IMG/VR virus record: IMGVR_UViG_2671180724_000008
Origin: a virus
Taxonomy: Duplodnaviria; Heunggongvirae; Uroviricota; Caudoviricetes
Length of the DNA: 64,000 nt
Strand: one strand, 5' to 3'
Positions within the stretch are counted from its first letter, which is position 1, and each line of letters starts with the position of its first letter. The translations under genes and the position numbers were made by a program. A model generated the notes under the pieces. The model searched no databases. It saw nothing but the letters and a program-made list of their open reading frames with translations, and was not told the origin of the DNA. Shown in pieces: positions 1,522 to 22,579 of this stretch.

Positions 1522-2289
1522 TTATGCCGCGCTAACACTATGTTCAGTCCTAACCACCCCAACCTTCACAAAAGGGCTACCGTAGCTTGGTGGCTTCTTG
1601 ATTAATTTGCCTACATACAGTTTTCTAATATGCTCATCGGCTATTCTGCCAACAAATTCATAACGTTTTGTGTCGGGGCCAAGAGCTATATCCCTTGTAA
1701 AGTACTGCTGAGAACCGGCTTTGACCCAGCATTCAATCCGATAAACTTCCATTATCAGCCCACCATATGTAGCGTAGGCATATTTGAGATTCTCGTCTCT
1801 TGGAACCTTTGCCCATACGCCACGCGTAGCTTCATATAATGCCAGAGCGGACATTCCTGACTTGTAGGTGCTGTTTAGCAGGAAGGCAAGACCGGCGTGC
1901 TCAGGAGCAATTTCAGTTTCCTCTTGCAGCACTAAGTGATGGTAGGCGTCCAGTGATATTCTGCCCATCATGGAACCACTTCCTCGTACCTTATTCGTAA
2001 GCTCTCCGACCCCCATAAGGTCGATGCATGTCGCCTCAACAAGTTTGGCTGTGGTTTCATCCATACCATGACGAAGTATATCTATGCCTAATTTTTTATT
2101 AGCCAAAAGTTCTTTGATCCGCATGGATTTGGGAGAGTCATCGGGATACTTGATGTGATCGAGACAACGAGTCGATTTGCCTTTTCCTATGTAAAACGGT
2201 CTTTTCATCTTGTCTTCTGTATCATAGAGACAGTAAACATAGTATTTAGCCTTATCCAATGATCTCGCGTATACCGATAAATCGTCCAT
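1522..2289 (-). CDS. GIY-YIG nuclease-domain protein, possible free-standing homing endonuclease
   Basis: N-terminal YVYCLYD...PFYIGKGK...R...H matches the GIY-YIG signature; encoded opposite to the surrounding genes. Confidence 0.55.
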   Translation of the reverse strand: MDDLSVYARSLDKAKYYVYCLYDTEDKMKRPFYIGKGKSTRCLDHIKYPDDSPKSMRIKELLANKKLGIDILRHGMDETTAKLVEATCIDLMGVGELTNKVRGSGSMMGRISLDAYHHLVLQEETEIAPEHAGLAFLLNSTYKSGMSALALYEATRGVWAKVPRDENLKYAYATYGGLIMEVYRIECWVKAGSQQYFTRDIALGPDTKRYEFVGRIADEHIRKLYVGKLIKKPPSYGSPFVKVGVVRTEHSVSAA

Positions 2290-10263: not shown

Positions 10264-10339
10264 GATGGTGTAGCTCAGCGGTAGAGCAGTTGGCTGTTAA
10301 CCAACTGGTCGGTGGTTCGAATCCACCCACCATCGCCAA
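10264..10339 (+). tRNA. tRNA-Asn (anticodon GUU)
   Basis: Cloverleaf by hand: acceptor GATGGTG/CACCATC, anticodon stem GTTGG/CCAAC with loop CTGTTAA, T-arm GGTGG-TTCGAAT-CCACC, 3' CCA. Confidence 0.8.
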
Positions 10340-10343
10340 TTTA

Positions 10344-10430
10344 GGGGAGTTAGTCCGTAGAGGTAGCGGTGTAGACTGTAAATCTACTGTCATTGCGACT
10401 CGGGTGGTTCGACTCCATCACTCCCCACCA
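10344..10430 (+). tRNA. tRNA-Tyr (anticodon GUA), long variable arm
   Basis: Acceptor GGGGAGT/ACTCCCC, anticodon stem GTAGA/TCTAC with loop CTGTAAA, T-loop TTCGACT, 3' CCA. Confidence 0.7.
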
Positions 10431-10434
10431 AATT

Positions 10435-10510
10435 GCCGGTTTAGCTCAGTTGGTAGAGCGCCTGCCTTGTAAGCAGGATGTCAGCGGTTCGTGTCCGTTA
10501 ACCGGCACCA
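10435..10510 (+). tRNA. tRNA-Thr (anticodon UGU)
   Basis: Acceptor GCCGGTT/AACCGGC, D-arm GCTC-AGTTGGTA-GAGC, anticodon loop CTTGTAA, T-arm AGCGG-TTCGTGT-CCGTT, 3' CCA. Confidence 0.8.
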
Positions 10511-10518
10511 ACATAATA

Positions 10519-10598
10519 TTGAGAACATTGGCGTAACGGGGTCATATCCCAATCTATGAATAAATGTTACGTTGCCGCGTGACAACCAGTGTTCTCAA
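10519..10598. repeat. Stem-enclosed element (TTGAGAACATTGG / CCAGTGTTCTCAA) with nested CGTAAC/GTTACG stem
   Basis: 13-bp inverted repeat; same CACAnnGTTGAG stem family in inverted orientation. Confidence 0.5.
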
Positions 10599-11178
10599 CA
10601 TTGTGGTGAATGCACAGGCTGATGTGCCGCAACTACAGTAGTGCGCGCTTTGCGGGGCTTGCTACAACCCTGTGTCGGAGATCAGCGCCGACCATCACAA
10701 TTTGGCTCTCTTGCAACAGCATAACGCTGAAATATGTCCAACCTGGTGCGGCCTGTTCACCCGCCGTTAGCTCCACGAAACGGAGCGCACAACAGATAAG
10801 AGAACTTCCCATATGGGGCTTGGCTTAAATGCATCGAGTTCTCTTATCGCTGTGTCACAGACAAATTTCCGACAGCCCTGTTTATCATCGGACGCAACCT
10901 AAAAGGTCGAGGCAAAGCCAGGTAATAGCGGAGGGAGTGACACAGCACACAACAGGTAAGAGCATTTGTAGAGTTCGACTCTCTACCGTGGGCTTTTTCC
11001 CGCGATGCGAGCCATAAATGCTCTTTCCGTTGTGGTGGATTCGCAGACTGATGCGATAGCTTTCTTGGATGTTAGGGAAATGCGGCCGCAAATCTTCCCT
11101 TTCGCGAGCGGTGATCGTCCGTAGTCCTAATTGGCTGCACCGTATGCCGGAGATTCAGTACCGGCCACCACAACGGCC

Positions 11179-11265
11179 GGAGAGTAGGGAGCATGGTGCT
11201 CAAGCGGTCTTGAAAACCGTCCCATTGTGCAAACGATGATGGTTCGATTCCATTACTCTCCGCCA
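11179..11265 (+). tRNA. tRNA-Ser (anticodon UGA), long variable arm
   Basis: Acceptor GGAGAGT/ACTCTCC, anticodon stem-loop GGTCTTGAAAACC as in enterobacterial tRNA-Ser(UGA), T-loop TTCGATT, 3' GCCA; D-arm atypical. Confidence 0.65.
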
Positions 11266-11460: not shown

Positions 11461-12795
11461 TCATGCCAAATTATCCAGATTTCTTTTCTTTTTTTCAATT
11501 ATATTTCTCGCGCCAGAAAAAATTTTACTCAAAATAATTGATTTGCTTGCTCTATTATTAAGATGTAACAACGCGCTATAAAATACATAGTTATCTATTT
11601 TACTATTTAAAGTATTCCCAAGCTTCCCGTTATATGTGCTATTAATAGTATTAAAATATACATGTTCAGGACCTATATTACAAATACCCCTATCAACTCG
11701 CTTTAAATAATGTTTAACTAAAGAAATAGCATCTTCCTTATCATTAATAACATAAAGTCCTGAGCGTTTACCTAGCTTGCTGTCCGAGAATAATTTATAA
11801 CCAACAAGTTCATTTAACGTATTATCCACTTTTGTCAACTCTTTGTTGGCAATCTCCAAATAATACTCAATCTCTTTCTCCATATTACTTATTAAAGAGT
11901 TAAATTCTGCTCGTAACAAATCACCACCAGGTGATTTATAACTCCATAAAATTGAATTGGTAATACGTACTACGTCAGATACTTCTGGTTTCTCTGAATA
12001 GTTTTTGTATCTAGTGCAAATAATGCTGTGCTTTATATATTCTCTAACTAATGATCGATAATCCCTTTCGAAAAGGTTTTTGACATCTAGTCTTCCATTG
12101 CTTGTTGTTATTAAGGTGGTGTTTAAAACTGGGTCGCCTTCAAAAAAATTATATTTATTTAGTAATCGTTTTAGCTTGTGTGAATTATGTGATGTTTCGC
12201 CATAATAATTTATCCCAAAAATAGCAATTATTAGCATAACATCAGGAGTGATGAAATGTCGTAATTGCTCGGCATAAACTTTTTTATCTTCGATTTTCGA
12301 AGATGGAGAGTAAAAACCTTTGTCTATATATTCTAATATTGAAACAATATTACTAACATAACGTATAAAAACTTGATTCATTACAACGGAATCATAAACC
12401 TGATGCAAATAATCTACTCTCAAGTTGTTTTTTATTTTTTCCCCTGTACTAGATGATAACTCTTCTTTTACCTGCCCAAGTAGCTTTTCGTGGTGCTCCA
12501 GCAATGTTTTAAACCATTGTTCAAATGATGATTTTCTTGCCTCAGTTAATGAATCTGATGTTATCTGGACAGCTTTCATAGCTGCTTTCGCACTTTTCTT
12601 TGCTTCATAAGCGTTCCATGCTGAAGCACAAAAAGCTGCCGCCGTGATGCAACTGGTAAAAATAGAAATCCTATCTGCAACATTCAAGCTCCAGAACCAA
12701 TCAGACGATGAAATCAAAACCACAGATATTACGGGAACAATGAAAATCAAAACAGGCATGTATGTACTCGCTCTAATAGTTATTAGTCGAGGCAA
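11461..12795 (-). CDS. AT-rich membrane-anchored protein of unknown function; candidate superinfection-exclusion, abortive-infection or defence gene
   Basis: Gene visibly much more AT-rich than neighbours; two N-terminal TM helices then about 380-aa soluble region; own AT-rich promoter region and terminator; opposite strand. Confidence 0.6.
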   Translation of the reverse strand: MPRLITIRASTYMPVLIFIVPVISVVLISSSDWFWSLNVADRISIFTSCITAAAFCASAWNAYEAKKSAKAAMKAVQITSDSLTEARKSSFEQWFKTLLEHHEKLLGQVKEELSSSTGEKIKNNLRVDYLHQVYDSVVMNQVFIRYVSNIVSILEYIDKGFYSPSSKIEDKKVYAEQLRHFITPDVMLIIAIFGINYYGETSHNSHKLKRLLNKYNFFEGDPVLNTTLITTSNGRLDVKNLFERDYRSLVREYIKHSIICTRYKNYSEKPEVSDVVRITNSILWSYKSPGGDLLRAEFNSLISNMEKEIEYYLEIANKELTKVDNTLNELVGYKLFSDSKLGKRSGLYVINDKEDAISLVKHYLKRVDRGICNIGPEHVYFNTINSTYNGKLGNTLNSKIDNYVFYSALLHLNNRASKSIILSKIFSGARNIIEKKKRNLDNLA

Positions 12796-12854
12796 ATATT
12801 ATATAAATCTCGTTATGATTTACAGACATGTATACGTATTGCTAATTATCACCA

Positions 12855-12888
12855 ACAAATGATAGGTGTGTACATATCTATCATTTGT
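12855..12888. promoter_or_regulatory. Palindrome ACAAATGATAG-N12-CTATCATTTGT in promoter region of the minus-strand gene
   Basis: Perfect 11-bp inverted repeat; half-site related to the GATAAGTA family. Confidence 0.45.
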
Positions 12889-12937
12889 TGTAAAATTAAT
12901 GTATACGCTATGAATACACTAATAATATGAGGTAATC

Positions 12938-13183
12938 ATGACTATCGTTATCTACGGACGAGATAACTGTTCATACTGCAAACGTGCGGTCGAGCTGGCG
13001 AAGCAACTAAAGGGACATGGCTACGGTGATTATGAGTACATCGACATCACTACTACCGGTATCGATAAGGAAAAACTTAGCGAAATTGTTGGTAAACCGG
13101 TAGAGACTATACCCCAGGTACTGATCGATGGCCAGCCGATTGGCGGATACACAGAACTGGCTGCATACGTCAGCACCCTCTGA
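12938..13183 (+). CDS. Glutaredoxin (NrdH/Grx-like redoxin)
   Basis: CSYC active-site motif near N-terminus, 81 aa. Confidence 0.75.
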   Translation: MTIVIYGRDNCSYCKRAVELAKQLKGHGYGDYEYIDITTTGIDKEKLSEIVGKPVETIPQVLIDGQPIGGYTELAAYVSTL

Positions 13184-13187
13184 TTTT

Positions 13188-13211
13188 AACGGCTCACAGG
13201 AGCCGTTTTTA
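13188..13211 (+). terminator. Rho-independent terminator (CGGCTC-acag-GAGCCG then TTTTT)
   Basis: Hairpin plus T-run after glutaredoxin stop. Confidence 0.7.
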
Positions 13212-13349
13212 TTCCCACCAAACTCACTCCCGTTTCCCTTAAAATTCAAAAAACAACGTCAAAATGATTCCATACCTACTATGTATGGAATCATTCGTGA
13301 AAATGAGTTACTTTTACTCTTGATCCTATAAGAATCTATGCCTAATATA

Positions 13350-13365
13350 CTGTTTACTTATACAG
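13350..13365. promoter_or_regulatory. LexA (SOS) box CTGTTTACTTATACAG, about 29 bp upstream of the recombinase start
   Basis: Matches CTGT-N8-ACAG with AT-rich spacer. Confidence 0.6.
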
Positions 13366-13393
13366 TGAATCGGCGTAACTCGGTGATTGTCAT

Positions 13394-14497
13394 ATGAAAA
13401 ATAGCTTTGACAGAGCACGCGCTGCGGAGAACACCTCAAAAGAGGCGATTGAGTATCTCGAAAGAGCATCTCAAATGCAGGCCGTTATGATCTCGCAGGT
13501 TAGCAATGACATGAGATTCTCGGACGCATTCATGTTATTCACTCGCTTATCTCTGCTTATAACCAGACGTCGGCCAGAGATCGCTGTTCATTGTATTTTG
13601 ATACATGTTTTGCCGCACATTGCTGATGTAAAAGTAAGTGACATTAATAGGTTCATGGTGAACCAACTGGTAAACCCACTAATACTGGATGGCAAAATTG
13701 TTATGGGCCGCCGCGTTTTCTCTCTGATGAAGCAGTTCCTTAGCTGGTGCGCCTTCCAGGGGATGATAGACGTGTCACCGTTAAACGATATGTCACTAAA
13801 CAAAGTTGCCGGTGGCGCAAAGCCCACACCTCGCGAGCGGAAGCTGACCGACGCAGAGGTATGGGTGTTCTGGAATATATGGGACTACTTCAATGTGTGC
13901 GCTGGTACAAAATGGGCGGCCAGGCTGTGTCTTGTATCAGCAAGACGACCTGACGAAGTACTGCGGGCTAAAAAAAGTGAGTTCAATCTTAAGCGTGGGG
14001 TTTGGAATCAAGGCAAGAGAAACAAGTCAGCACGTGAGCATTCGCTGCCTTTAAGCACATTAATGCGCACATGCATTGAAGAGTTGTTCGAATACGGTAA
14101 AGACAGCCAGTGGCTCGTGCCTTCGAATAAAAAAATCGGGAAAGACCTTCCTATGTCTAAAGTGGCAATAGCCCAGGCATTACGTCGTATTCTGGAACGA
14201 CCAGAACTGATGGAGCTTGAGCCATTTACACCCCGAGATTTGCGCCGTACTGCGCGTAGTTACTTCCCAGCATTAGGCATAAGCCAGGAGGTATCACGCA
14301 AAATCATGAACCACAGTCTTGAGGGGATAGATCGGGTCTACGACCGGCACGATTATATGGACGAGATGCGAGACGCCTTAGAAAGTTTCTCGACGTACAT
14401 CGCATCAATCGTAGAGCAACCGGATTTAGACGAAATTGACCACAAATTCAAGGGAGATCGTCTATCAACAGAGCTTATTCGTGTAAATTTTTCATAG
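13394..14497 (+). CDS. Tyrosine recombinase (phage integrase family); integration versus dimer-resolution role unresolved
   Basis: C-terminal motifs RDLRRTARSY and HSLEG...RVYDRHDY resembling P4-type integrase R/H-x-x-R/Y signature, recalled from memory; no obvious N-terminal arm-binding domain. Confidence 0.65.
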   Translation: MKNSFDRARAAENTSKEAIEYLERASQMQAVMISQVSNDMRFSDAFMLFTRLSLLITRRRPEIAVHCILIHVLPHIADVKVSDINRFMVNQLVNPLILDGKIVMGRRVFSLMKQFLSWCAFQGMIDVSPLNDMSLNKVAGGAKPTPRERKLTDAEVWVFWNIWDYFNVCAGTKWAARLCLVSARRPDEVLRAKKSEFNLKRGVWNQGKRNKSAREHSLPLSTLMRTCIEELFEYGKDSQWLVPSNKKIGKDLPMSKVAIAQALRRILERPELMELEPFTPRDLRRTARSYFPALGISQEVSRKIMNHSLEGIDRVYDRHDYMDEMRDALESFSTYIASIVEQPDLDEIDHKFKGDRLSTELIRVNFS

Positions 14498-14878
14498 AGA
14501 CTTTATGGCCTCAACAACCTTTTGTGATGCGCCTTTCTCTTTACCGAATCGCTCGTTATATGCAGCAAGAACCTGTTTTTCGTCCTCGTTAAGAGGAGCG
14601 GTGCCTTCTTTGTATAAAAATGCTGCGAGTTCAGGTTGGCGTTCTTCCAGCACCATCATCATAAGACGACTTGGCTCAATACCCAGCGCCAGCGCCAGCG
14701 GACGAACCTTATCGATAGGCAAAGGAATTTTGCCACTTTTAATTAAAGAAAGGTTGTTGGCATTTTTATAACCAATAAGTCTGGCTATTTGGGCCTGACT
14801 CATAGGTGAGGATTCAATCAGCCCTGCGATAAAAGCAGCATAGCGACTTTCTATAAATTCAATCTTGTTGTCAGACAT
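14492..14878 (-). CDS. XRE-family helix-turn-helix transcriptional regulator
   Basis: HTH region SQAQIARLIGYKNANNLSLIKSG; divergent from downstream plus-strand genes. Confidence 0.7.
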   Translation of the reverse strand: MSDNKIEFIESRYAAFIAGLIESSPMSQAQIARLIGYKNANNLSLIKSGKIPLPIDKVRPLALALGIEPSRLMMMVLEERQPELAAFLYKEGTAPLNEDEKQVLAAYNERFGKEKGASQKVVEAIKSL

Positions 14879-15129: not shown

Positions 15130-15342
15130 ATGAAAACCACTATTTCCAGCCTAATCGCTCTTGAGATCGGACACGTACAGAAATTAGCTGATGAGTGTGT
15201 AGCTGACATCCTCACCGATCTACCGAATGAGCAGATTCAGGTTGGTGTGAATGACACAACTGGCTTTATATTCGAACTTAACAACAAACGCTTCACGCTT
15301 CTCAATACCGGCTCCGGGTCTTTAGCCGTCAGAATCTGTTAA
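15130..15342 (+). CDS. Small hypothetical protein
   Basis: 70-aa ORF divergent from the XRE regulator. Confidence 0.4.
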   Translation: MKTTISSLIALEIGHVQKLADECVADILTDLPNEQIQVGVNDTTGFIFELNNKRFTLLNTGSGSLAVRIC

Positions 15343-15440: not shown

Positions 15441-17549
15441 ATGTCTAAAAAACGTTCCATCAAAGAGGTTCAGGACTTCCGTGACAGTGTAAAACGAGTA
15501 GTCGCTCTCCTTTCAGGTAAAAACATCCCTGTTGCAGAACGAGGGGACGACGCTTATGTACGCTATAACGATGATGGAGAGCCAATTCTCGTAAACATCC
15601 CATCAATCCCGGATAACGCAACACCGGCATTGATGAATGCTGTGCGCGGATTTCTCGATCATGAGGTTGCTCACATTTTGTTTACCGATATTCGTGTGTC
15701 CAACAAAATGAGAGAAAAAGGACGCGTTCCTTCCTGGTCGCTATGGAATGCCTTAGAAGACGTGTTCATCGAGCGAAAAATGGGGCAGGTCTTTAACGGA
15801 ACAAGACGTAATCTGATGGCAACTCAGCGCCTTATAATCGAAAAAGTCTTTAAACCAAAGGCTTCAGAGGCTATTGCTTATTGTGGCAAAGATCAGCGCG
15901 CGCTTTTTCTAAACTTCTTTCTCTGTCCGGTTGTAAGAGCCTGGGATGGCCAAGCACCGTTCGTAGATTTCATGGATGAATACTGGCCTGTCATTGAGAA
16001 ACCAATTTCATTATTAAAAGAACATGGTATCGATGTGGCCGTGCGTAACATGTCTTGCACCGAGGATTGTGTAAAGGTGGCTGCGACCATAGCTAAGATC
16101 CTCAAAGACACTGAAAGTGAAAGCAAAGGTAAGGAGTCAGCTCCGGGAAAAACTTCCGATCCTTCAGACGCTGACCAGACGGATGCCTCTGGAGAAAACA
16201 ATGAAGACAACGAAGATCATGAGACACCCTCAGCGTTAGATAATCACAAATCTATCGAATCAGAATCACACAGTAAGCACAAACATGATAATAACGACAG
16301 TGATGATTCAGATAATTCTGAATCATCAGAAACAATATTCGATGATACAGAAAATGATAAAGAGGTATCAGATTCTGATGCTTCTGATAACGCGGCGTCA
16401 GAATCATTAACCGCTGGCCACGAAAAAAGAAAAACGACAGAAGACGGCTCTTCAGATATTCCAACTCCGTCAAAAATGAGTCTGGAAGAGGCTTTAGAGG
16501 AGCTGGATAGCATAGAAGATGAAGTCGGAGGCATGACAGAAGATGCTCTATCCGAAACGATTAAAAGCGAGTTAACAGAAAGCTCGAAAAGCGAATACAG
16601 GCCATACAATCGCTCATACGACTTCATCGGCTCGATTGATCAGGCAGAAGCCCATATCAAACGGCTTATTAAAACATTCTCCGATATTGATTTAGGAGGA
16701 TATCCAATCAGCCGCTATCGCATCGTTCCTGAAGGCAACCAGCTCTTCGACAAATATATTGAAAAGCATCTTTCGTCAGGTGTTTCGTCGACGCTGGCAA
16801 AAGACCTGGAGCGAGCAATAGCAAGCAGAAACAGAGTTCAGTTTATACCGGGCCAGCGTCGGGGGCGCATTCATGGTTCTAGTATCTACAGATTAGCAAT
16901 GAATGATGATCGCGTGTTTCGTAAAAAAGAAGAATCTAAAGCCGTTAACGCCTGTGTTCAACAAGTGATTGATTTATCAGGTTCAATGAGTGGCGAAACG
17001 ATAAAACTAGCTCTTGCAAGTGCATATACCATCGCCGATGCTCTTGATCGAATAAATGTTCCCAACATTATCACCGGCTTCACTACATTTGGCAGTCATC
17101 TGGCAGCGATAGAACTTAAGGCTATCAAGTATGAGTTCTCTCGCTTTGAATCTTTAATGCTACCTATCATCAAAAATTGGAATGAAAAAGCAAATTCTCG
17201 CGAAGTTCGCTCACGTATGGGGTGCGTAGGCTACACATTCCCACTTCTTAATAACGTGGATGGTGAAAGCATAGCCAGCCTTGCATCGTTATTTTCCGGT
17301 CGCATGGAGGACAGGAAGATCATGCTTGTTCTGAGCGATGGCGAGCCGCTGGCTGTTGGGAGAGGTTTTGACGCTCATTTGCGTTCGGTTGCGAAGCAAA
17401 TTGAAACGCAGACTGACATTGATTTGATGGCAATTGGCATCATGACTGACGCACCGGAGAGATTTTACGCAAATCATGCCCTGGTAACGAGCGTTGATAG
17501 TCTTGGTTCATCTGTAGTTACTGAACTATCTCGTATCATTTTGAAGTGA
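15441..17549 (+). CDS. CobT-like protein with C-terminal vWA domain and acidic Ser/Asp-rich linker
   Basis: MIDAS-like DLSGSMSG motif in C-terminal third; long low-complexity acidic insert; adjacent to AAA ATPase. Confidence 0.6.
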   Translation: MSKKRSIKEVQDFRDSVKRVVALLSGKNIPVAERGDDAYVRYNDDGEPILVNIPSIPDNATPALMNAVRGFLDHEVAHILFTDIRVSNKMREKGRVPSWSLWNALEDVFIERKMGQVFNGTRRNLMATQRLIIEKVFKPKASEAIAYCGKDQRALFLNFFLCPVVRAWDGQAPFVDFMDEYWPVIEKPISLLKEHGIDVAVRNMSCTEDCVKVAATIAKILKDTESESKGKESAPGKTSDPSDADQTDASGENNEDNEDHETPSALDNHKSIESESHSKHKHDNNDSDDSDNSESSETIFDDTENDKEVSDSDASDNAASESLTAGHEKRKTTEDGSSDIPTPSKMSLEEALEELDSIEDEVGGMTEDALSETIKSELTESSKSEYRPYNRSYDFIGSIDQAEAHIKRLIKTFSDIDLGGYPISRYRIVPEGNQLFDKYIEKHLSSGVSSTLAKDLERAIASRNRVQFIPGQRRGRIHGSSIYRLAMNDDRVFRKKEESKAVNACVQQVIDLSGSMSGETIKLALASAYTIADALDRINVPNIITGFTTFGSHLAAIELKAIKYEFSRFESLMLPIIKNWNEKANSREVRSRMGCVGYTFPLLNNVDGESIASLASLFSGRMEDRKIMLVLSDGEPLAVGRGFDAHLRSVAKQIETQTDIDLMAIGIMTDAPERFYANHALVTSVDSLGSSVVTELSRIILK

Positions 17550-17565
17550 TTAAAACAGCCTTAAC

Positions 17566-17587
17566 GATAAGTAACTACTTATGATAG
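17566..17587. promoter_or_regulatory. Copy of palindrome family GATAAGTAACTACTTAT
   Basis: Intergenic. Confidence 0.4.
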
Positions 17588-17644
17588 TTAATGATATATT
17601 TATATAAGAAGTTGAACGCTCATTAGAGAACAAAGGAAAAACGC

Positions 17645-18880
17645 ATGACTACTACTGCACTGCAAAATGAAAAAAATCCTTCTGATTACCTTGTTTGCAA
17701 GTGGTGCGGAAAATCATTTCACTATTTTAAGTCCCATGTAGCCTATGGTAATTGCGAGGGCATTCCTGAGTCGGTAAAAGATGCCGATCCTGACACCGTA
17801 CTGAAAATGTACACAACGCAGTTTCCAGATGAACCAACGCTATCGAAAAAGGCACTTGATGCAATTCAAGCTAAACGTGCCGAGCAAAAAAGCGAAATGG
17901 CCAAATCTTCTGGTGTGACCAGTAGCCCAGGCTACATAGGCACAGTTGAGTACAAGACAGATCTGGTCGCAGCTCACGAACTGCTAGACGTAACGGTGGA
18001 AGAACTCGGAACAAAACGTGGGACGCCGCTCATGGTTAGCGTCAACGTCAATACGCCGTTTCCAGAGTTCGTTCCTGAAGTGAAGAAGGGCTACGTATAT
18101 GGCGACTTCGAACTGATCAAAGACATTTTCATGATGCTTGAACTTGGCATACCAGGCTATTTGTGGGGACATGCAGGAACAGGCAAATCGTCATTGCCTA
18201 CACAGCTATGTGCTTTGCTCAATCGTCCGTTGATCCGTGCCCAACATACAGCATCAATGGAAGAAGCTCATGTTACGGGTCAAATTCTGGCGCGTGATGG
18301 CTCTACGTATTTCGAGCCAGGCTTGCTTGCGCTCGCAATGAAGCATGGCTGGGTTTACCTCGCGGATGAATACGACTTTGCGTTTCCACAAATTCTTGGC
18401 GTGTATCAGCCAGTGCTGGAAGGTGAAGCGTTGGTCATCAAAGAGGCGACACCAGAATGGCGTCGCATTACTCCGCATAAACGGTTTGCTTTTATTGGCA
18501 CTGGCAACACGAACGGATCTGGTGATGAAACCGGCTTGTACCAGGGTACAAACATCCAGAACGCCGCGAACTTTTCGCGTTTTGGCATCGTTTCGAATGT
18601 GAAATACATGAGCAAAGAGGCAGAGATCAACATGTTGATAAATGCCGGCATTGTGGATGAGTACGCTGAAAAGATGGTTAAGTTTGCCGGTATCGTTCGC
18701 GATGGTTACGAAGAACACAATATCAGCCAACCGATTGGGCCTCGTGAGCTTTTGTTGTCGGCCAAGATTGGAATGATGCGAGGCGACTTTGTGACAGGTA
18801 TTGAGCGTTCTTTCATTAACAAACTCCCTTCAGCTTCTGCACAAGCGGCTCGTGAAGTTGTTCAAAAAATATTTGGTTGA
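17645..18880 (+). CDS. CobS/MoxR-like AAA+ ATPase with N-terminal zinc-ribbon
   Basis: Walker A GHAGTGKSS; N-terminal CxxC...C motif; paired with vWA protein. Confidence 0.65.
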   Translation: MTTTALQNEKNPSDYLVCKWCGKSFHYFKSHVAYGNCEGIPESVKDADPDTVLKMYTTQFPDEPTLSKKALDAIQAKRAEQKSEMAKSSGVTSSPGYIGTVEYKTDLVAAHELLDVTVEELGTKRGTPLMVSVNVNTPFPEFVPEVKKGYVYGDFELIKDIFMMLELGIPGYLWGHAGTGKSSLPTQLCALLNRPLIRAQHTASMEEAHVTGQILARDGSTYFEPGLLALAMKHGWVYLADEYDFAFPQILGVYQPVLEGEALVIKEATPEWRRITPHKRFAFIGTGNTNGSGDETGLYQGTNIQNAANFSRFGIVSNVKYMSKEAEINMLINAGIVDEYAEKMVKFAGIVRDGYEEHNISQPIGPRELLLSAKIGMMRGDFVTGIERSFINKLPSASAQAAREVVQKIFG

Positions 18881-19060
18881 TCGTGCGTAAAGGATGTTTC
18901 GGCTCTCTTATCGCTGCTTCTGAAACTGGTAAGGCTTGTCTGGTGTGTCCAGACAAGCCCGATTGTCACCAATCAGCAAAAGAAGTTGCGATTTCGATGC
19001 ACGGGAAGTTCGTAGGCTTCCCAAATGACAAAATCAAAAAAACCAGAAAGGTAAAAACAC

Positions 19061-22000
19061 ATGAAGGCACTGATGGTTCGAACTGACTTCTCACTTGGGG
19101 AGTCGGCTTTAAAAGCGGAAAACGCGGTGAAGATTGCCAGAGAAGCTGGCTACACCGCTGTAATTTCAGCAGATAGCATGAATATTGCGAGTGTTATTCC
19201 ACTACAACGTGCCGCTGGTGACGACATGGCGGTTATTTGTGGTGTGAAACTAAATATCGTTGATGATCCCACATACGAGTACCGGGCTAAACTTGCTAAA
19301 GAGTCTAAGGGATGTATGGAATCATTAGAGCGAGGACGTAACTACTCGTTTACCGCTCTAATTAAAAATGAGCAAGGATATCGCGACATCTGCGAACTAA
19401 TGACGGTGGCCAACACACGAGAACAGTTCTACTTTGTACCGCGTCTCTCGCTCGAACAGTTGGTTTCTACATATGCCAAAGGCAACATCATCCTGCTCAC
19501 TTCCGACATCGGTAGCGTGTTCCAACGCAACGATTTTGCAAAAATCATAAGCACACTGATTACAGCGGGTGGAAAAGACAACTTCTATAGTGTGGTTTAT
19601 CCGCACCCTACCCCATTCTACGACCAGATTAACGTCCGGGCGATGAAAGTCGCCAGCGCATTGAAAATAGAGCCAGTGGCGTTCTATCCCGCTTATTACG
19701 AATCGATCGACGATGCAGACATTAAAGACATTGCGCACATGGTTACGAACAACATCAAAATCGACCAGCCGCATCGTCTGCGTATCCCCCACCAGCGAGA
19801 TAACGCCGTCAATGGTCGCCGCCATCTCCTTGAGGCTCTTAAAGCCTTCTCCGTTCGCATGGATGTGCCGGTAACAGCTGCAATGGCCTCAACAACGCAG
19901 GATACCATTATCGATGCCTGCACATGGCGCTGGCATGAATTGCCGCCAGCACTGCCAAAGATGGCAGACGACGAGCCTGCAACGCTTATGAAACTGGCTG
20001 TTGCAGGGCTGCGTAAACGTCTTACCACAAAAGAGTTTGGCTACACACCACCTGCTTCTGAGAACAGGGTTTATGTTGAGCGGCTAAAGTACGAAATGGA
20101 CACGCTGACTCGCCTGGGATTTTGTGGTTACTTCCTGATGGTACGCGATCTGATGAATCACAGCCGTGAAACTGGCATTCCTGTCGGGCCTGGTCGTGGT
20201 TCCTCCGCTGGATCTCTGGTGGCATGGTGCATAGGCATAACCAACGTCGACCCAATCCGTCACGGTCTTCTGTTTGAACGTTTCATCAACCCTGAGCGTC
20301 TCGACTTGCCGGATGCGGATTTGGACTTCAGCCAGGCACGTCGCCATGAAGTGATCGAGTATTTGAATGAACGCTACGGCGAAGATTACGTTGCGGGTAT
20401 TCCGAACTTCACATATCTGGGCGCAGCCTCTGCACTACGTGACACCGCTCGTATTTATGGTGTGGAGTCCGCAGATATGGCGGTATCAAAAGAACTGAAG
20501 AACGTCGAGGATGATAGCCTTCCATTGGAAGAACTGCGCGAACAACTGGCAAGTCTCGACAAATACGCAACAAAATATCCTGATGCATTCAATGCAGCCT
20601 GCAAGTTACAAAGCCTTATGCGTGGCTTTGGTAGACATGCGGCAGGGATGATCGTAGCAGGTGTTCCTCTGACAGAACGTACACCGGTTGAGCGCCGTGG
20701 TGACGCGCGTTGTATCGCATTTGACAAGCGTTACTGCGAGGCTATGGGCCTAATTAAGCTGGACGTGCTTGGCCTGGCAACTCTCGATTTGCTCGATAGT
20801 GCAAAACGCTACATAAAAGAGAACACAGGTGAAGATATCAATCTTGATGCCATTTCTCTTGAGGATCGCAAGGTGCTGGATGGTTTTGCTGCTGGGTACA
20901 CTCAAGGTGTTTTCCAGCTTGAATCAGGCCCAATGCGCAAGCTGCTTAAAGATTTAGGTGGTGGAATTGAGCCAATGAGCTTTAAAACGGTTGTTGCTAC
21001 GACTGCGCTCTTCCGGCCGGGGCCAATTCAGTCAGGCATGTTGGATGATTATGTTTCTGTCGCCAAAGGCTTTATGACGCCGGAATCATTACACCCCGTT
21101 CTTGATGAACTTACCGCAGAAACAAATGGCGTGATTCTCTATCAGGAACAGACGATGAACGCGACTCGATTGCTTGCTGGCTTCACAATGGCTGAAGCTG
21201 ACGGTGTTCGTAAAGCGATCGGCAAAAAAGACATGGAAAAAATGAAGAGCATGGGCGAGAAGTTCATCGTTCAGGCTCAAGCTGGCTGGATAGACGTTGA
21301 GCTGGAAGATGGCACTACACAGCGCATTCACCGTGCGGAACATTTTAAATGCGAAGACGGAACTCTGAAAACTGTCGAAGAGGCACTTGAGTACGGCGCA
21401 AAACTACCTATAAACGCAGTACGCGTTACAGCGTCACATCCAGGGCTATCAGAGATGAAAGCGAAGGAGATCTGGACCGCATTCGAAAAGAATGGTGCCT
21501 ACCAGTTCAACAAATCACACTCTGTTGCTTACTCCTTAATCAGTTATCAATCTATGTGGTTGAAAACTCATTATCCCGCAGAGTTTTTCGCTGCTGCTCT
21601 CACTATTCTTGGCGAAGATAAACACCAGGGGCTGGTTAAAGATGCGCTGACCTATGGTATTCGCGTATTGCCACCAGACGTTAACGTGTCATCTAACCGA
21701 ATCGAGATCCGCACGCTTGAAGATGGCAGCCAGGTGCTGTATGCGCCCTTCTCTGCTGTGAAAGGTTGTTCTGAGAATGGCTGCCAGGCCATCATGAGAG
21801 CGCGAGAAAAAGTTGGCGGCAAATTCGAGTCACTGGCGCAATTCGAAGAAGCTGTCGAGAAACGTGCCTGTAATAGTCGAGTGCGCGAATCACTGCAAAA
21901 AGTAGGGGCGTTTGCATCCATCGAGCCAGGTAGTCTGCCAGCAACTGATCCAGAGCGTCTCCGCGACCAAGCTGAATTGATGGGAAACCTTGTCATAGAC

Positions 22001-22579
22001 GCAGTTAAAGCCTCACGTCCGTTTGAGATGAACCCCAAACGTTCGGCTGAGATTAACGTGCTCATGACACGGATGGCGGCTGAAATGGGATTAGGTGATG
22101 AACTAATCCGCCCTAGCATTGGCATTAAGCCGAAAATCATGATCATTCTGGACAATGCAAACGGCAATGATGCTCGAACCGGTTACTTTATGGAGAACGG
22201 ATACGACGATTTTAAGGCCAAGCTGTTGACGGCTGGGGATTTGCGCATGGGCGATCTCTATGTCACAGGCGTTTGCAAAAAGGTGAAAGACAAAGAAAAG
22301 GACTACACCAAAGACGAGATCGGCCAGTTCACCGACTTTATGCGTGAAGAGATCAATCTGGTGCGCCCGACCTATGTGCTGACGTGTGGCAGCCGGGCAA
22401 CGGCATTGTTTAACAACAAAAACAAGCCATCCGATTTGGTCGGCAGGAAGGAGTACCTTCCAGACCTTGACGTTACTGTCTTTTACGGGTTTAACCCCAA
22501 CATTCTTTACTTCAGACCTGAAGAGGGAGAACGACTAGAAGCGATATTAGCCGACGTAGCAGAAACCATTAAGACGTGA
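19061..22579 (+). CDS. dnaE: DNA polymerase III alpha subunit (DnaE-like replicative polymerase)
   Basis: 1172 aa; core motifs GPGRGSSAGSLVAWCIGIT and NPERLDLPDADLDF typical of DnaE. Confidence 0.9.
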   Translation: MKALMVRTDFSLGESALKAENAVKIAREAGYTAVISADSMNIASVIPLQRAAGDDMAVICGVKLNIVDDPTYEYRAKLAKESKGCMESLERGRNYSFTALIKNEQGYRDICELMTVANTREQFYFVPRLSLEQLVSTYAKGNIILLTSDIGSVFQRNDFAKIISTLITAGGKDNFYSVVYPHPTPFYDQINVRAMKVASALKIEPVAFYPAYYESIDDADIKDIAHMVTNNIKIDQPHRLRIPHQRDNAVNGRRHLLEALKAFSVRMDVPVTAAMASTTQDTIIDACTWRWHELPPALPKMADDEPATLMKLAVAGLRKRLTTKEFGYTPPASENRVYVERLKYEMDTLTRLGFCGYFLMVRDLMNHSRETGIPVGPGRGSSAGSLVAWCIGITNVDPIRHGLLFERFINPERLDLPDADLDFSQARRHEVIEYLNERYGEDYVAGIPNFTYLGAASALRDTARIYGVESADMAVSKELKNVEDDSLPLEELREQLASLDKYATKYPDAFNAACKLQSLMRGFGRHAAGMIVAGVPLTERTPVERRGDARCIAFDKRYCEAMGLIKLDVLGLATLDLLDSAKRYIKENTGEDINLDAISLEDRKVLDGFAAGYTQGVFQLESGPMRKLLKDLGGGIEPMSFKTVVATTALFRPGPIQSGMLDDYVSVAKGFMTPESLHPVLDELTAETNGVILYQEQTMNATRLLAGFTMAEADGVRKAIGKKDMEKMKSMGEKFIVQAQAGWIDVELEDGTTQRIHRAEHFKCEDGTLKTVEEALEYGAKLPINAVRVTASHPGLSEMKAKEIWTAFEKNGAYQFNKSHSVAYSLISYQSMWLKTHYPAEFFAAALTILGEDKHQGLVKDALTYGIRVLPPDVNVSSNRIEIRTLEDGSQVLYAPFSAVKGCSENGCQAIMRAREKVGGKFESLAQFEEAVEKRACNSRVRESLQKVGAFASIEPGSLPATDPERLRDQAELMGNLVIDAVKASRPFEMNPKRSAEINVLMTRMAAEMGLGDELIRPSIGIKPKIMIILDNANGNDARTGYFMENGYDDFKAKLLTAGDLRMGDLYVTGVCKKVKDKEKDYTKDEIGQFTDFMREEINLVRPTYVLTCGSRATALFNNKNKPSDLVGRKEYLPDLDVTVFYGFNPNILYFRPEEGERLEAILADVAETIKT

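Follow-up and report, generated by a model that had tools for sequence, protein, structure and literature searches.

The gene pairs NorQ/NorD, CbbQ/CbbO, CoxD/CoxE and CobST function in metal-centre insertion or enzyme activation. Few auxiliary metabolic genes of tailed viruses are reported as widely as cobS and cobT, which are counted as a viral contribution to vitamin B12 synthesis. A 'cobST cluster' has been described as widespread in these viruses and was proposed to hijack the CobN of the host; the same study called the 'peptidase' annotation of a cyanophage cobT a mistake (Liu et al. 2021, PMC8651126). For jumbo phages, a MoxR ATPase was found to have a vWA partner with a metallopeptidase domain at its N-terminus, and a role in virion assembly was proposed (Iyer et al. 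2021, PMC7824862). The crystal structure of CobT_N from Brucella was described as peptidase M48C-like, and in the CobSTN complex this domain is docked onto the small CobS subdomain, the segment preceding the vWA domain enters the CobS ring as a 'shaft', and CobN lies on the MIDAS side; the text of that preprint mentions neither zinc nor an HExxH motif (bioRxiv 10.64898/2026.07.21.739949). Here we characterize a gene pair of this kind in a stretch of 64,000 nucleotides of viral DNA (IMG/VR record IMGVR_UViG_2671180724_000008; hereafter the window), which belongs to a phage-plasmid of the SSU5/pHCM2 type. The pair encodes a CobT-like protein of 702 aa (hereafter the adaptor) and a CobS/MoxR-like AAA+ ATPase of 411 aa. 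We assign it to the MoxR class of motor-adaptor pairs, within the phage cobST family, and not to the chelatases; its adaptor has retained an HExxH site of the protease type.

The two open reading frames (ORFs) of the initial annotation were confirmed on the plus strand, with ATG start codons, at positions 15441-17549 (adaptor) and 17645-18880 (ATPase), separated by a gap of 95 bp. All parts of the two genes described below have the same orientation. The adaptor matched PHROG 1576 over profile positions 2-729 of 729 (E 4e-299), and the ATPase matched PHROG 249, labelled 'porphyrin biosynthesis', over positions 4-375 of 380 (E 2.8e-106). On sequence grounds, the pair thus belongs to the phage cobST family (PHROG 1576 and PHROG 249), which has been described before and whose genes are present in thousands of database records. 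Among 1.84 billion cluster representatives, 5166 relatives of the adaptor were found at E <= 1e-3 and 529 at E <= 1e-30. The locus region of 4.2 kb shares 97.8% identity with Escherichia phage Cyrano and 99.5% with the E. coli plasmid AP026520.1, and it was matched by 454 plasmid records spanning Escherichia, Enterobacter, Yersinia, Salmonella, Citrobacter and Klebsiella; the pair was also found in 48 phage records. The occurrence in pHCM2-type elements, named in the initial annotation, is therefore real. The locus scans and the first homologue search were dominated by near-identical SSU5-like elements, and diversity was taken from representatives, spread tblastn rows and contig look-ups.

Besides SSU5-like elements, the pair is present in siphoviruses of about 110 kb that infect Pseudomonas (nickie), Rhizobium (RHEph10) and Stenotrophomonas, in the Vibrio cholerae podovirus ICP2, in Roseobacter phage CRP-810 and in Gordonia phages. 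A match in Xanthomonas phage JGB6 lies under fragmented 'DNA polymerase III' annotations of a poorly annotated genome and was not interpreted. The two genes are adjacent in every phage locus that was examined. The order helicase, primase, ligase, further genes, cobT, cobS, a small gene and dnaE, the gene for the DNA polymerase III alpha subunit, is shared by Cyrano, nickie, RHEph10 and two unrelated metagenomic contigs, and it holds at adaptor identities of only 30-35%. In ICP2, the pair is located directly upstream of a primase, a helicase and a polymerase of a different type. Both ORFs were intact in every related locus retrieved. The dN/dS values were lowest in the AAA+ module (0.03-0.05), followed by the vWA domain (about 0.1), and reached about 0.3 in the N-terminal domain of the adaptor, the linker and the finger of the ATPase; purifying selection thus acts on all parts of both genes. 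Because the frames are intact in all retrieved loci and dN/dS is 0.03-0.3 throughout, neither ORF is a chance reading frame.

The N-terminal domain of the adaptor (N-domain; aa 1-225, 15441-16115) was predicted to consist of one helix, a three-stranded sheet and a helical bundle, and the model suggests a zincin-like fold of the M48/M56 kind. It contains the sequence HEVAH (15660-15674), an HExxH motif formed by H74, E75 and H78 that follows the invariant D73. The motif E106-D107-x3-E111 (15756-15773), on the helix after next, offers a candidate third metal ligand; its residues are invariant, and either E106 or E111 would serve in this role. The model places HExxH and E106/E111 on the helices 62-81 and 97-117, respectively. 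In two alignments with mean column identities of 31-33%, H74, E75, H78, E106, D107 and E111 were all invariant, and HExxH was present in 143 of 146 full-length representatives with 30-60% identity to the adaptor. The motif extends beyond the DnaE-siphovirus group, reading HECYH in ICP2, HEAGH in CRP-810 and HEIGH in the Gordonia phage Anamika. In contrast, all five cellular CobTs compared (Shinella, Cereibacter, Sphingomonas, Pandoraea and Caballeronia) read D[SA]xALR at the position of HExxH. The same five proteins retain the fold markers G70, D73, E106, E111, G120 and N124, whereas D107 is not retained. This pattern suggests a family of active enzymes from which a pseudo-enzyme has branched off in cells, and catalysis would be expected of the phage proteins. 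The adaptor of the chelatase may thus have evolved from an active peptidase-vWA cochaperone into a pseudo-enzyme. The metallopeptidase-vWA partner of a MoxR ATPase in jumbo phages was noted independently and counts in favor of a protease-type site in the adaptor.

Searches with the N-domain itself gave little. Foldseek returned no matches for the model, and phmmer of the N-domain alone against PDB sequences gave only spurious matches to HLA class II and superoxide dismutase, which were rejected. A profile comparison with E. coli HtpX, an M48 member, aligned only the HExxH motif, at a non-significant probability of 0.65%. Because this comparison was limited to the motif, membership in M48 is not claimed at the sequence level.

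The remaining parts of the adaptor correspond to those of CobT. In Pfam, the protein matched CobT (residues 9-294, E 1.3e-27) and the vWA family CobT_C (residues 492-701, E 3.4e-82), and in the PDB it matched CobT 9uka (E 9.6e-17). The C-terminal vWA domain with MIDAS (16914-17543) had already been proposed in the initial annotation. Its MIDAS residues D511-x-S513-x-S515, N605 and D633 are invariant in an alignment of 43 sequences with 28-48% identity, and they align with D422, S424, S426, N518 and D546 of Brucella CobT. The long acidic insert was likewise found as described. It is a Ser/Thr-rich low-complexity linker (aa 226-440, 16116-16760) of 215 aa, 26% of which are D or E, with 56 D/E, 21 K/R and 48 S/T, compared with 12.5% D and E in the remainder of the adaptor. 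With a dN/dS of about 0.3, it is the fastest-evolving part of the protein, and disorder is also seen in the corresponding linker of CobT in its solved structure (bioRxiv 10.64898/2026.07.21.739949). Between the linker and the vWA domain lies a conserved segment (aa ~454-505, 16800-16955), in which K454, E457, R458, G471, G475, L482, D489, R491 and F493 are invariant or almost so. It aligns with residues 347-420 of Brucella CobT, which contain the shaft Q373-R413, and by homology it would enter the ATPase ring as a shaft. The CobS-contacting motif R69-G70-x-x-D73 is conserved in the adaptor as well.

The ATPase contains an intact AAA+ module (aa 141-411, 18065-18877), which aligns with residues 39-315 of Brucella CobS. 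Residues 173-293 matched Pfam AAA_5 (E 1.7e-15), and the protein matched CobS 9ujv in the PDB (E 3.8e-26). Structure prediction and the homologue alignment were built from database proteins. In this alignment, the Walker A residues G175-K181 (motif 175-182), the Walker B residues D241/E242, the sensor-1 residue N288, the arginine finger R312 and the sensor-2 residue R367 were invariant. The AlphaFold2 model (pLDDT 88.5) retrieved NorQ with Foldseek (E 6.5e-16), and NorQ and CbbQ reached TM scores of 0.85-0.87. CbbQ_C was matched by 88 of 105 ATPase homologues. Together, an intact module of the AAA_5/CbbQ type and an adjacent vWA gene with a complete MIDAS identify the pair as a member of the MoxR class, in agreement with the proposed CobS/MoxR-like nature of the ATPase.

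It remained to be clarified whether the pair is a cobaltochelatase. The NCBI equivalog cut-offs are 759.05 bits for CobT (TIGR01651) and 558.55 bits for CobS (TIGR01650), and the adaptor (67.6 bits) and the ATPase (87.2 bits) were both far below them. Cellular controls passed: the CobTs of Shinella, Sphingomonas and Cereibacter scored 1141.7, 838.8 and 808.2 bits, respectively, and Shinella CobS scored 651.1 bits and contained CobS_N. With Pfam, CobS_N (PF12556) was not found in the ATPase of the window. No CobN was found in the window either, in which no ORF exceeds 1172 aa and the only ORF of CobN size is DnaE; the annotated complete genome of Cyrano contains neither CobN nor any cob gene, and its ribonucleotide reductase is the B12-independent class I NrdAB. 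To make B12, E. coli required heterologous cobN, cobS and cobT for the cobalt-chelation step in addition to the remaining aerobic pathway, and B12 synthesis in Salmonella follows the anaerobic route. To our knowledge, the enterobacterial hosts, including E. coli, have neither an aerobic B12 pathway nor a CobN. Because of the low scores, the missing CobS_N, the missing CobN and cob genes, and the need of E. coli for imported cobN, cobS and cobT, we regard the pair, as judged from sequence, as homologous but not orthologous to CobT/CobS and not as a cobaltochelatase. Clear orthology to bona fide cobaltochelatase subunits in a cobalamin context, which the initial annotation had named as the finding that would speak against its reading, was thus not observed. 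In Cyrano (locus L001, 16443-19882), the two genes are annotated as 'dimethylbenzimidazole phosphoribosyltransferase' and 'cobalamin synthetase'. These are the functions of the unrelated CobT and CobS of Salmonella, and the labels look like a name-collision error, which could propagate.

The initial annotation had assigned a zinc ribbon to the N-terminus of the ATPase. The metal-binding motif was confirmed, but a zinc ribbon needs two CxxC knuckles, and the domain is instead best read as a C2H2 finger of the Ros/MucR type (aa 11-88, 17675-17908). Its motif is C18-x2-C21-x9-H31, with C37 or a histidine as the fourth ligand. In 105 homologues with 40-91% identity, C18, C21 and H31 are invariant, H26 is nearly invariant, and the consensus is KIxCxICGAxVHSIQxHLxxxHPxxTxExY. 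The family consensus around the fourth ligand is HLxxxH; SSU5-like members carry C37, after an insertion of 12 residues, and their fourth ligand is probably a cysteine. The ligands of Ros (C79, C82, H92 and H97) have the same C-x2-C-x9-H spacing, and a C-x2-D variant that is known from Mesorhizobium homologues of Ros is also found in the finger of the Rhizobium phage ATPase. Pfam ROS_MUCR (PF05443) was matched by 31 of the 105 homologues, with a best E of 1.3e-6, and hhalign of the finger family profile with Sinorhizobium meliloti MucR gave a probability of 82.5% (E 9.7e-6). The ATPase of the window by itself gave no significant match to PF05443 and a BLASTP E of 0.004. In the AlphaFold2 model, residues 11-88 adopt a beta-beta-alpha-alpha-alpha fold (pLDDT 84-96) and residues 89-98 form a disordered linker. 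A retroviral-type zinc knuckle (CX2CX4HX4H via H26) was also considered and was dropped in favor of Ros/MucR on the Pfam and hhalign evidence. MucR is regarded as an alpha-proteobacterial family. With a finger query of 73 residues, tblastn against plasmids retrieved 74 Klebsiella, 38 Escherichia and 28 Enterobacter records, which may be ATPase fingers of SSU5-like elements or separate MucR-like genes.

The finger is present across the DnaE-siphovirus group and absent in ICP2, CRP-810 and cellular CobS. ATPases of other lineages have different and longer N-terminal extensions: that of Anamika (L161, 3209-4768; 519 aa) has several CxxC motifs, and that of CRP-810 (L160, 1827-3680) comprises 617 aa. 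The motor has thus exchanged its N-terminal module between groups of phages, which is what a role in targeting would predict.

In the window, the pair is part of a rightward string of genes that starts with a 70-aa ORF (15130-15342, plus strand; phrog_2627, without assigned function), continues with the adaptor gene, the ATPase gene and a Cys-rich 69-aa ORF (18877-19086, plus strand; CLVCPDKPDC..., phrog_6337), and reaches dnaE (19061-22579, plus strand). The 69-aa ORF overlaps the ATPase gene at its stop codon and dnaE at its start. It is kept in SSU5-like elements but not in distant relatives; in nickie and RHEph10 its slot is occupied by unrelated genes, including one for a sigma-70-like factor in RHEph10. 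The polymerase of 1172 aa, directly downstream, carries the Pfam domains PHP, pol3_alpha, finger and HHH_6. The string faces an integrase gene and a divergent gene for a helix-turn-helix repressor (14492-14878, minus strand), a homologue of CYRAN_45. Consensus promoter and terminator sites around the operon were no more common than in shuffled sequence, and operon boundaries are therefore not claimed from such scans. In the transcriptome of an LF82 lysogen, from which Cyrano genes at least 5-fold above background were published, the adjacent repressor was 10-fold over background, and the pair (CYRAN_47 and CYRAN_48) is not in the published list.

From these features, we tentatively favor a motor-adaptor machine that holds, pulls and cuts, that is active in lytic growth and that remodels and probably cleaves a client protein; we consider this reading to fall slightly short of an even chance. 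Six ATPase subunits would form a ring, as in the solved CobST and NorQD complexes. The N-domain of the adaptor would dock on the small subdomain of the ATPase, and the shaft before the vWA domain would go into the pore. ATP hydrolysis would then pull the adaptor while its MIDAS face grips the client, and the HExxH...E zinc site of the N-domain would cut it. The client would most likely be a protein of the host or the phage with a link to replication or takeover, with action early in lytic growth, and the Ros/MucR-type finger would target the motor to DNA or to a partner protein. This machine is favored because the zincin site has been retained under strong constraint, and early lytic action seems most likely because the pair stands at the head of a repressor-controlled lytic replication operon, beside dnaE.

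Several observations weigh against this reading. HExxH is missing in nickie, which reads SEISK, and in 3 of the 146 representatives, and yet the pair is retained, so that catalysis is not essential for every member of the family; the motif could also hold a metal for delivery instead of catalysis. The ATPase has no counterpart of the C-terminal helix alpha10, which is part of the interface between CobS and CobT_N in Brucella. The pair is also found alongside other polymerases, and the synteny with dnaE may reflect the common descent of one large siphovirus lineage. The lysogen expression table left out typical phage-cycle genes by design. The finger is close to neutral, with a median isoelectric point (pI) of 6.3 and a value of 6.9 in the window, compared with 9.7 for the DNA-binding domain of MucR, which argues against DNA binding; tethering to DNA by the finger was downgraded after this comparison. 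Lastly, no published function was found for any phage CobST pair, as the initial annotation had indicated, and no experimental work on any phage copy.

The pair could instead be a non-proteolytic maturation chaperone that remodels an enzyme for insertion or exchange of a metal centre or for activation, with HExxH holding the metal and with the PHP domain of DnaE or NrdAB as a conceivable client. The closest structural relatives are NorQ-NorD, CbbQ and CobST, the place beside a PHP-domain DnaE is conserved, and some lineages have lost HExxH but not the pair. Among the roles offered in the initial annotation, the chaperone-like one alone is supported. However, HExxH with an invariant general-base Glu and a downstream Glu is the signature of a catalytic zincin, true CobT supplies the force for metal insertion and yet has lost precisely the HExxH residues, and some phages have the pair but no DnaE, so we regard an exclusively non-proteolytic role as possible but doubtful. 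A more specific version of the cutting machine would be a replication-coupled, AAA+-driven metalloprotease, a phage counterpart of SPRTN/Wss1 with p97. Here, the finger would bring the motor to DNA or to a partner bound to DNA, and the MIDAS would take hold of a protein associated with DNA, for example a silencer of the nucleoid, the initiator or partition complex of the plasmid mode, or an obstacle in front of the phage DnaE, be it a roadblock or a crosslink. The zincin would then cut this protein; cellular CobT would be a pseudo-peptidase descended from such a machine, and the widespread cobS and cobT calls in viromes would not indicate B12 metabolism. As a whole, this extended proposal is rather unlikely.

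A chaperone or processing protease for virion assembly has been proposed from comparative genomics for the MoxR-vWA proteins of Acidianus two-tailed virus and the peptidase-vWA/MoxR pairs of group 2.2 jumbo phages, and the architecture of metallopeptidase, vWA and MoxR ATPase is identical (PMC7824862). The pair of the window, however, lies in a replication/early operon by the repressor and dnaE, likewise in distant relatives, and the structural genes of Cyrano form a separate block, whose last gene, for the tail fibre, is about 16 kb away; an assembly function is accordingly quite improbable. The same low probability is given to a device for counter-defence or host takeover, by which an immunity or nucleoid protein of the host would be removed or destroyed, or to a defence system of the prophage. 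According to one part of the published literature, vWA-MoxR modules occur in bacterial conflict systems; expression with early lytic genes would fit anti-defence, and N-terminal extensions of the ATPase that differ by lineage would be expected with changing targets. Yet PADLOC returned nothing for the ATPase and for the adaptor only an insignificant DrmE match (E 7.9e-4, residues 340-536), largely to the linker. Anti-defence genes are typically variable accessory genes, whereas the pair has a conserved core position, not one in a variable island, and is strongly constrained by purifying selection in hosts whose defence repertoires differ widely. Defence by the prophage, which had also been offered as a role, was rejected because PADLOC gave no real match and the pair is not among the genes reported to be expressed in the lysogen. 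The proposal that phage CobS and CobT plug into the CobN of the host and raise B12 synthesis during infection, as a true auxiliary metabolic pair, was published for tailed viruses in general (PMC8651126), and the homology to CobS and CobT is real. It is nonetheless most unlikely for this element: the equivalog scores are far too low while the controls pass, the element has no CobN or cob gene, its hosts are not known to have the aerobic pathway, its class I reductase is independent of B12, the ATPase lacks both CobS_N and the C-terminal CobS helix, and a peptidase-type site that chelatase CobTs do not have is retained in the adaptor.

These results have consequences for virome annotation. Because the hosts are not known to have CobN or the aerobic pathway and the adaptor keeps the protease-type site lost in chelatase CobTs, the B12 annotation is very probably wrong for the SSU5-like lineage, and it is doubtful in general. 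The division between phage proteins with HExxH and cellular proteins without it, the MucR-type finger on the motor and the placement at the head of a replication operon next to dnaE were not found in the literature. As the 454 plasmid records indicate, the element family is common in clinical Enterobacteriaceae, and a core lytic function is therefore of practical interest. A long-standing annotation puzzle has also become directly testable in a tractable E. coli element.

Some other genes of the window were noted. A 255-aa ORF (1522-2289, minus strand) beside a parA/relE-like partition region matched the PADLOC model PD-T4-3 (E 1.6e-23; ORF residues 11-231, model positions 11-238 of 256), and it is likely an anti-phage defence gene carried by the phage-plasmid. 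Four tRNA genes, for Asn-GTT, Tyr-GTA, Thr-TGT and Ser-TGA, are located at 10264-11265, where the annotation of Cyrano has only Asn, Thr and Ser. Between this cluster and a glutaredoxin gene lies a 444-aa ORF with a TTG start codon (11461-12795, minus strand), close to the 2-kb bin with the lowest GC content of the window (0.395, 12001-14000). It gave a borderline match to Pfam putAbiC, an abortive infection family (21.7 bits, cut-off 22), and none in PADLOC. At this position Cyrano has a different gene of 184 aa with the top lysogen expression (723-fold), and the position looks like a variable moron slot. In the DnaE of the window, about 215 C-terminal residues are without a Pfam match, whereas metagenomic DnaE homologues, such as that of contig L156 (11076-14450), end in a Pfam match to uracil-DNA-glycosylase (UDG); the C-terminal stretch may be a degenerate UDG-like domain.

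Several known systems resemble parts of the pair. The midasin Rea1 shares AAA_5-type modules (E 8e-12), and its D/E-rich linker leads to a MIDAS domain, by which a client is pulled from a complex; unlike the phage pair, it is one giant polypeptide of eukaryotes in which six AAA modules are fused, and it lacks a peptidase domain. With the M48/M56 gluzincins (Ste24/ZMPSTE24, HtpX, BlaR1), the motif is the only detectable sequence relation, and the adaptor domain differs from them in being soluble, without transmembrane segments, and fused to a vWA domain. The Ros/MucR C2H2 domain has the C-x2-C-x9-H spacing, the flanking pattern CxxCG...HL...H..T.E.Y and the predicted beta-beta-alpha-alpha core in common with the finger, but the latter is fused to an AAA+ ATPase instead of an oligomerisation domain and is near neutral instead of strongly basic. 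NorQ/NorD and CbbQ/CbbO provide the best structural matches to the ATPase and also have a vWA/MIDAS partner encoded next door; however, sequence identity is just 17-22%, and nitric oxide reductase and Rubisco, on which they act, are not present in this system. We know of no zincin N-domain in NorD or CbbO.

The cobaltochelatase of Brucella (CobSTN, PDB 9ujv and 9uka) is also encoded with adjacent cobS and cobT genes, and its AAA+ protein has the H2 and PS1 inserts and identical catalytic residues. Brucella CobT shares the M48-like N-domain, the acidic disordered linker, the shaft, the vWA/MIDAS domain and the RGxxD contact motif with the adaptor. The differences are an identity of only about 25% over the ordered domains, the absence of a CobN partner and a cob pathway from the phage element, HExxH in the adaptor in place of the cellular D[SA]xALR, a Ros/MucR finger in the ATPase instead of CobS_N and helix alpha10, and the gene order, which is T-S in the phage pair and S-T in cellular cobaltochelatase. 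The phage cobST cluster (PMC8651126) and the jumbo-phage pair (PMC7824862) have the same architecture as the pair described here and are equally uncharacterised; in contrast to the reading favored here, the published work treats such pairs as B12 auxiliary genes that hijack CobN or as virion-assembly chaperones.

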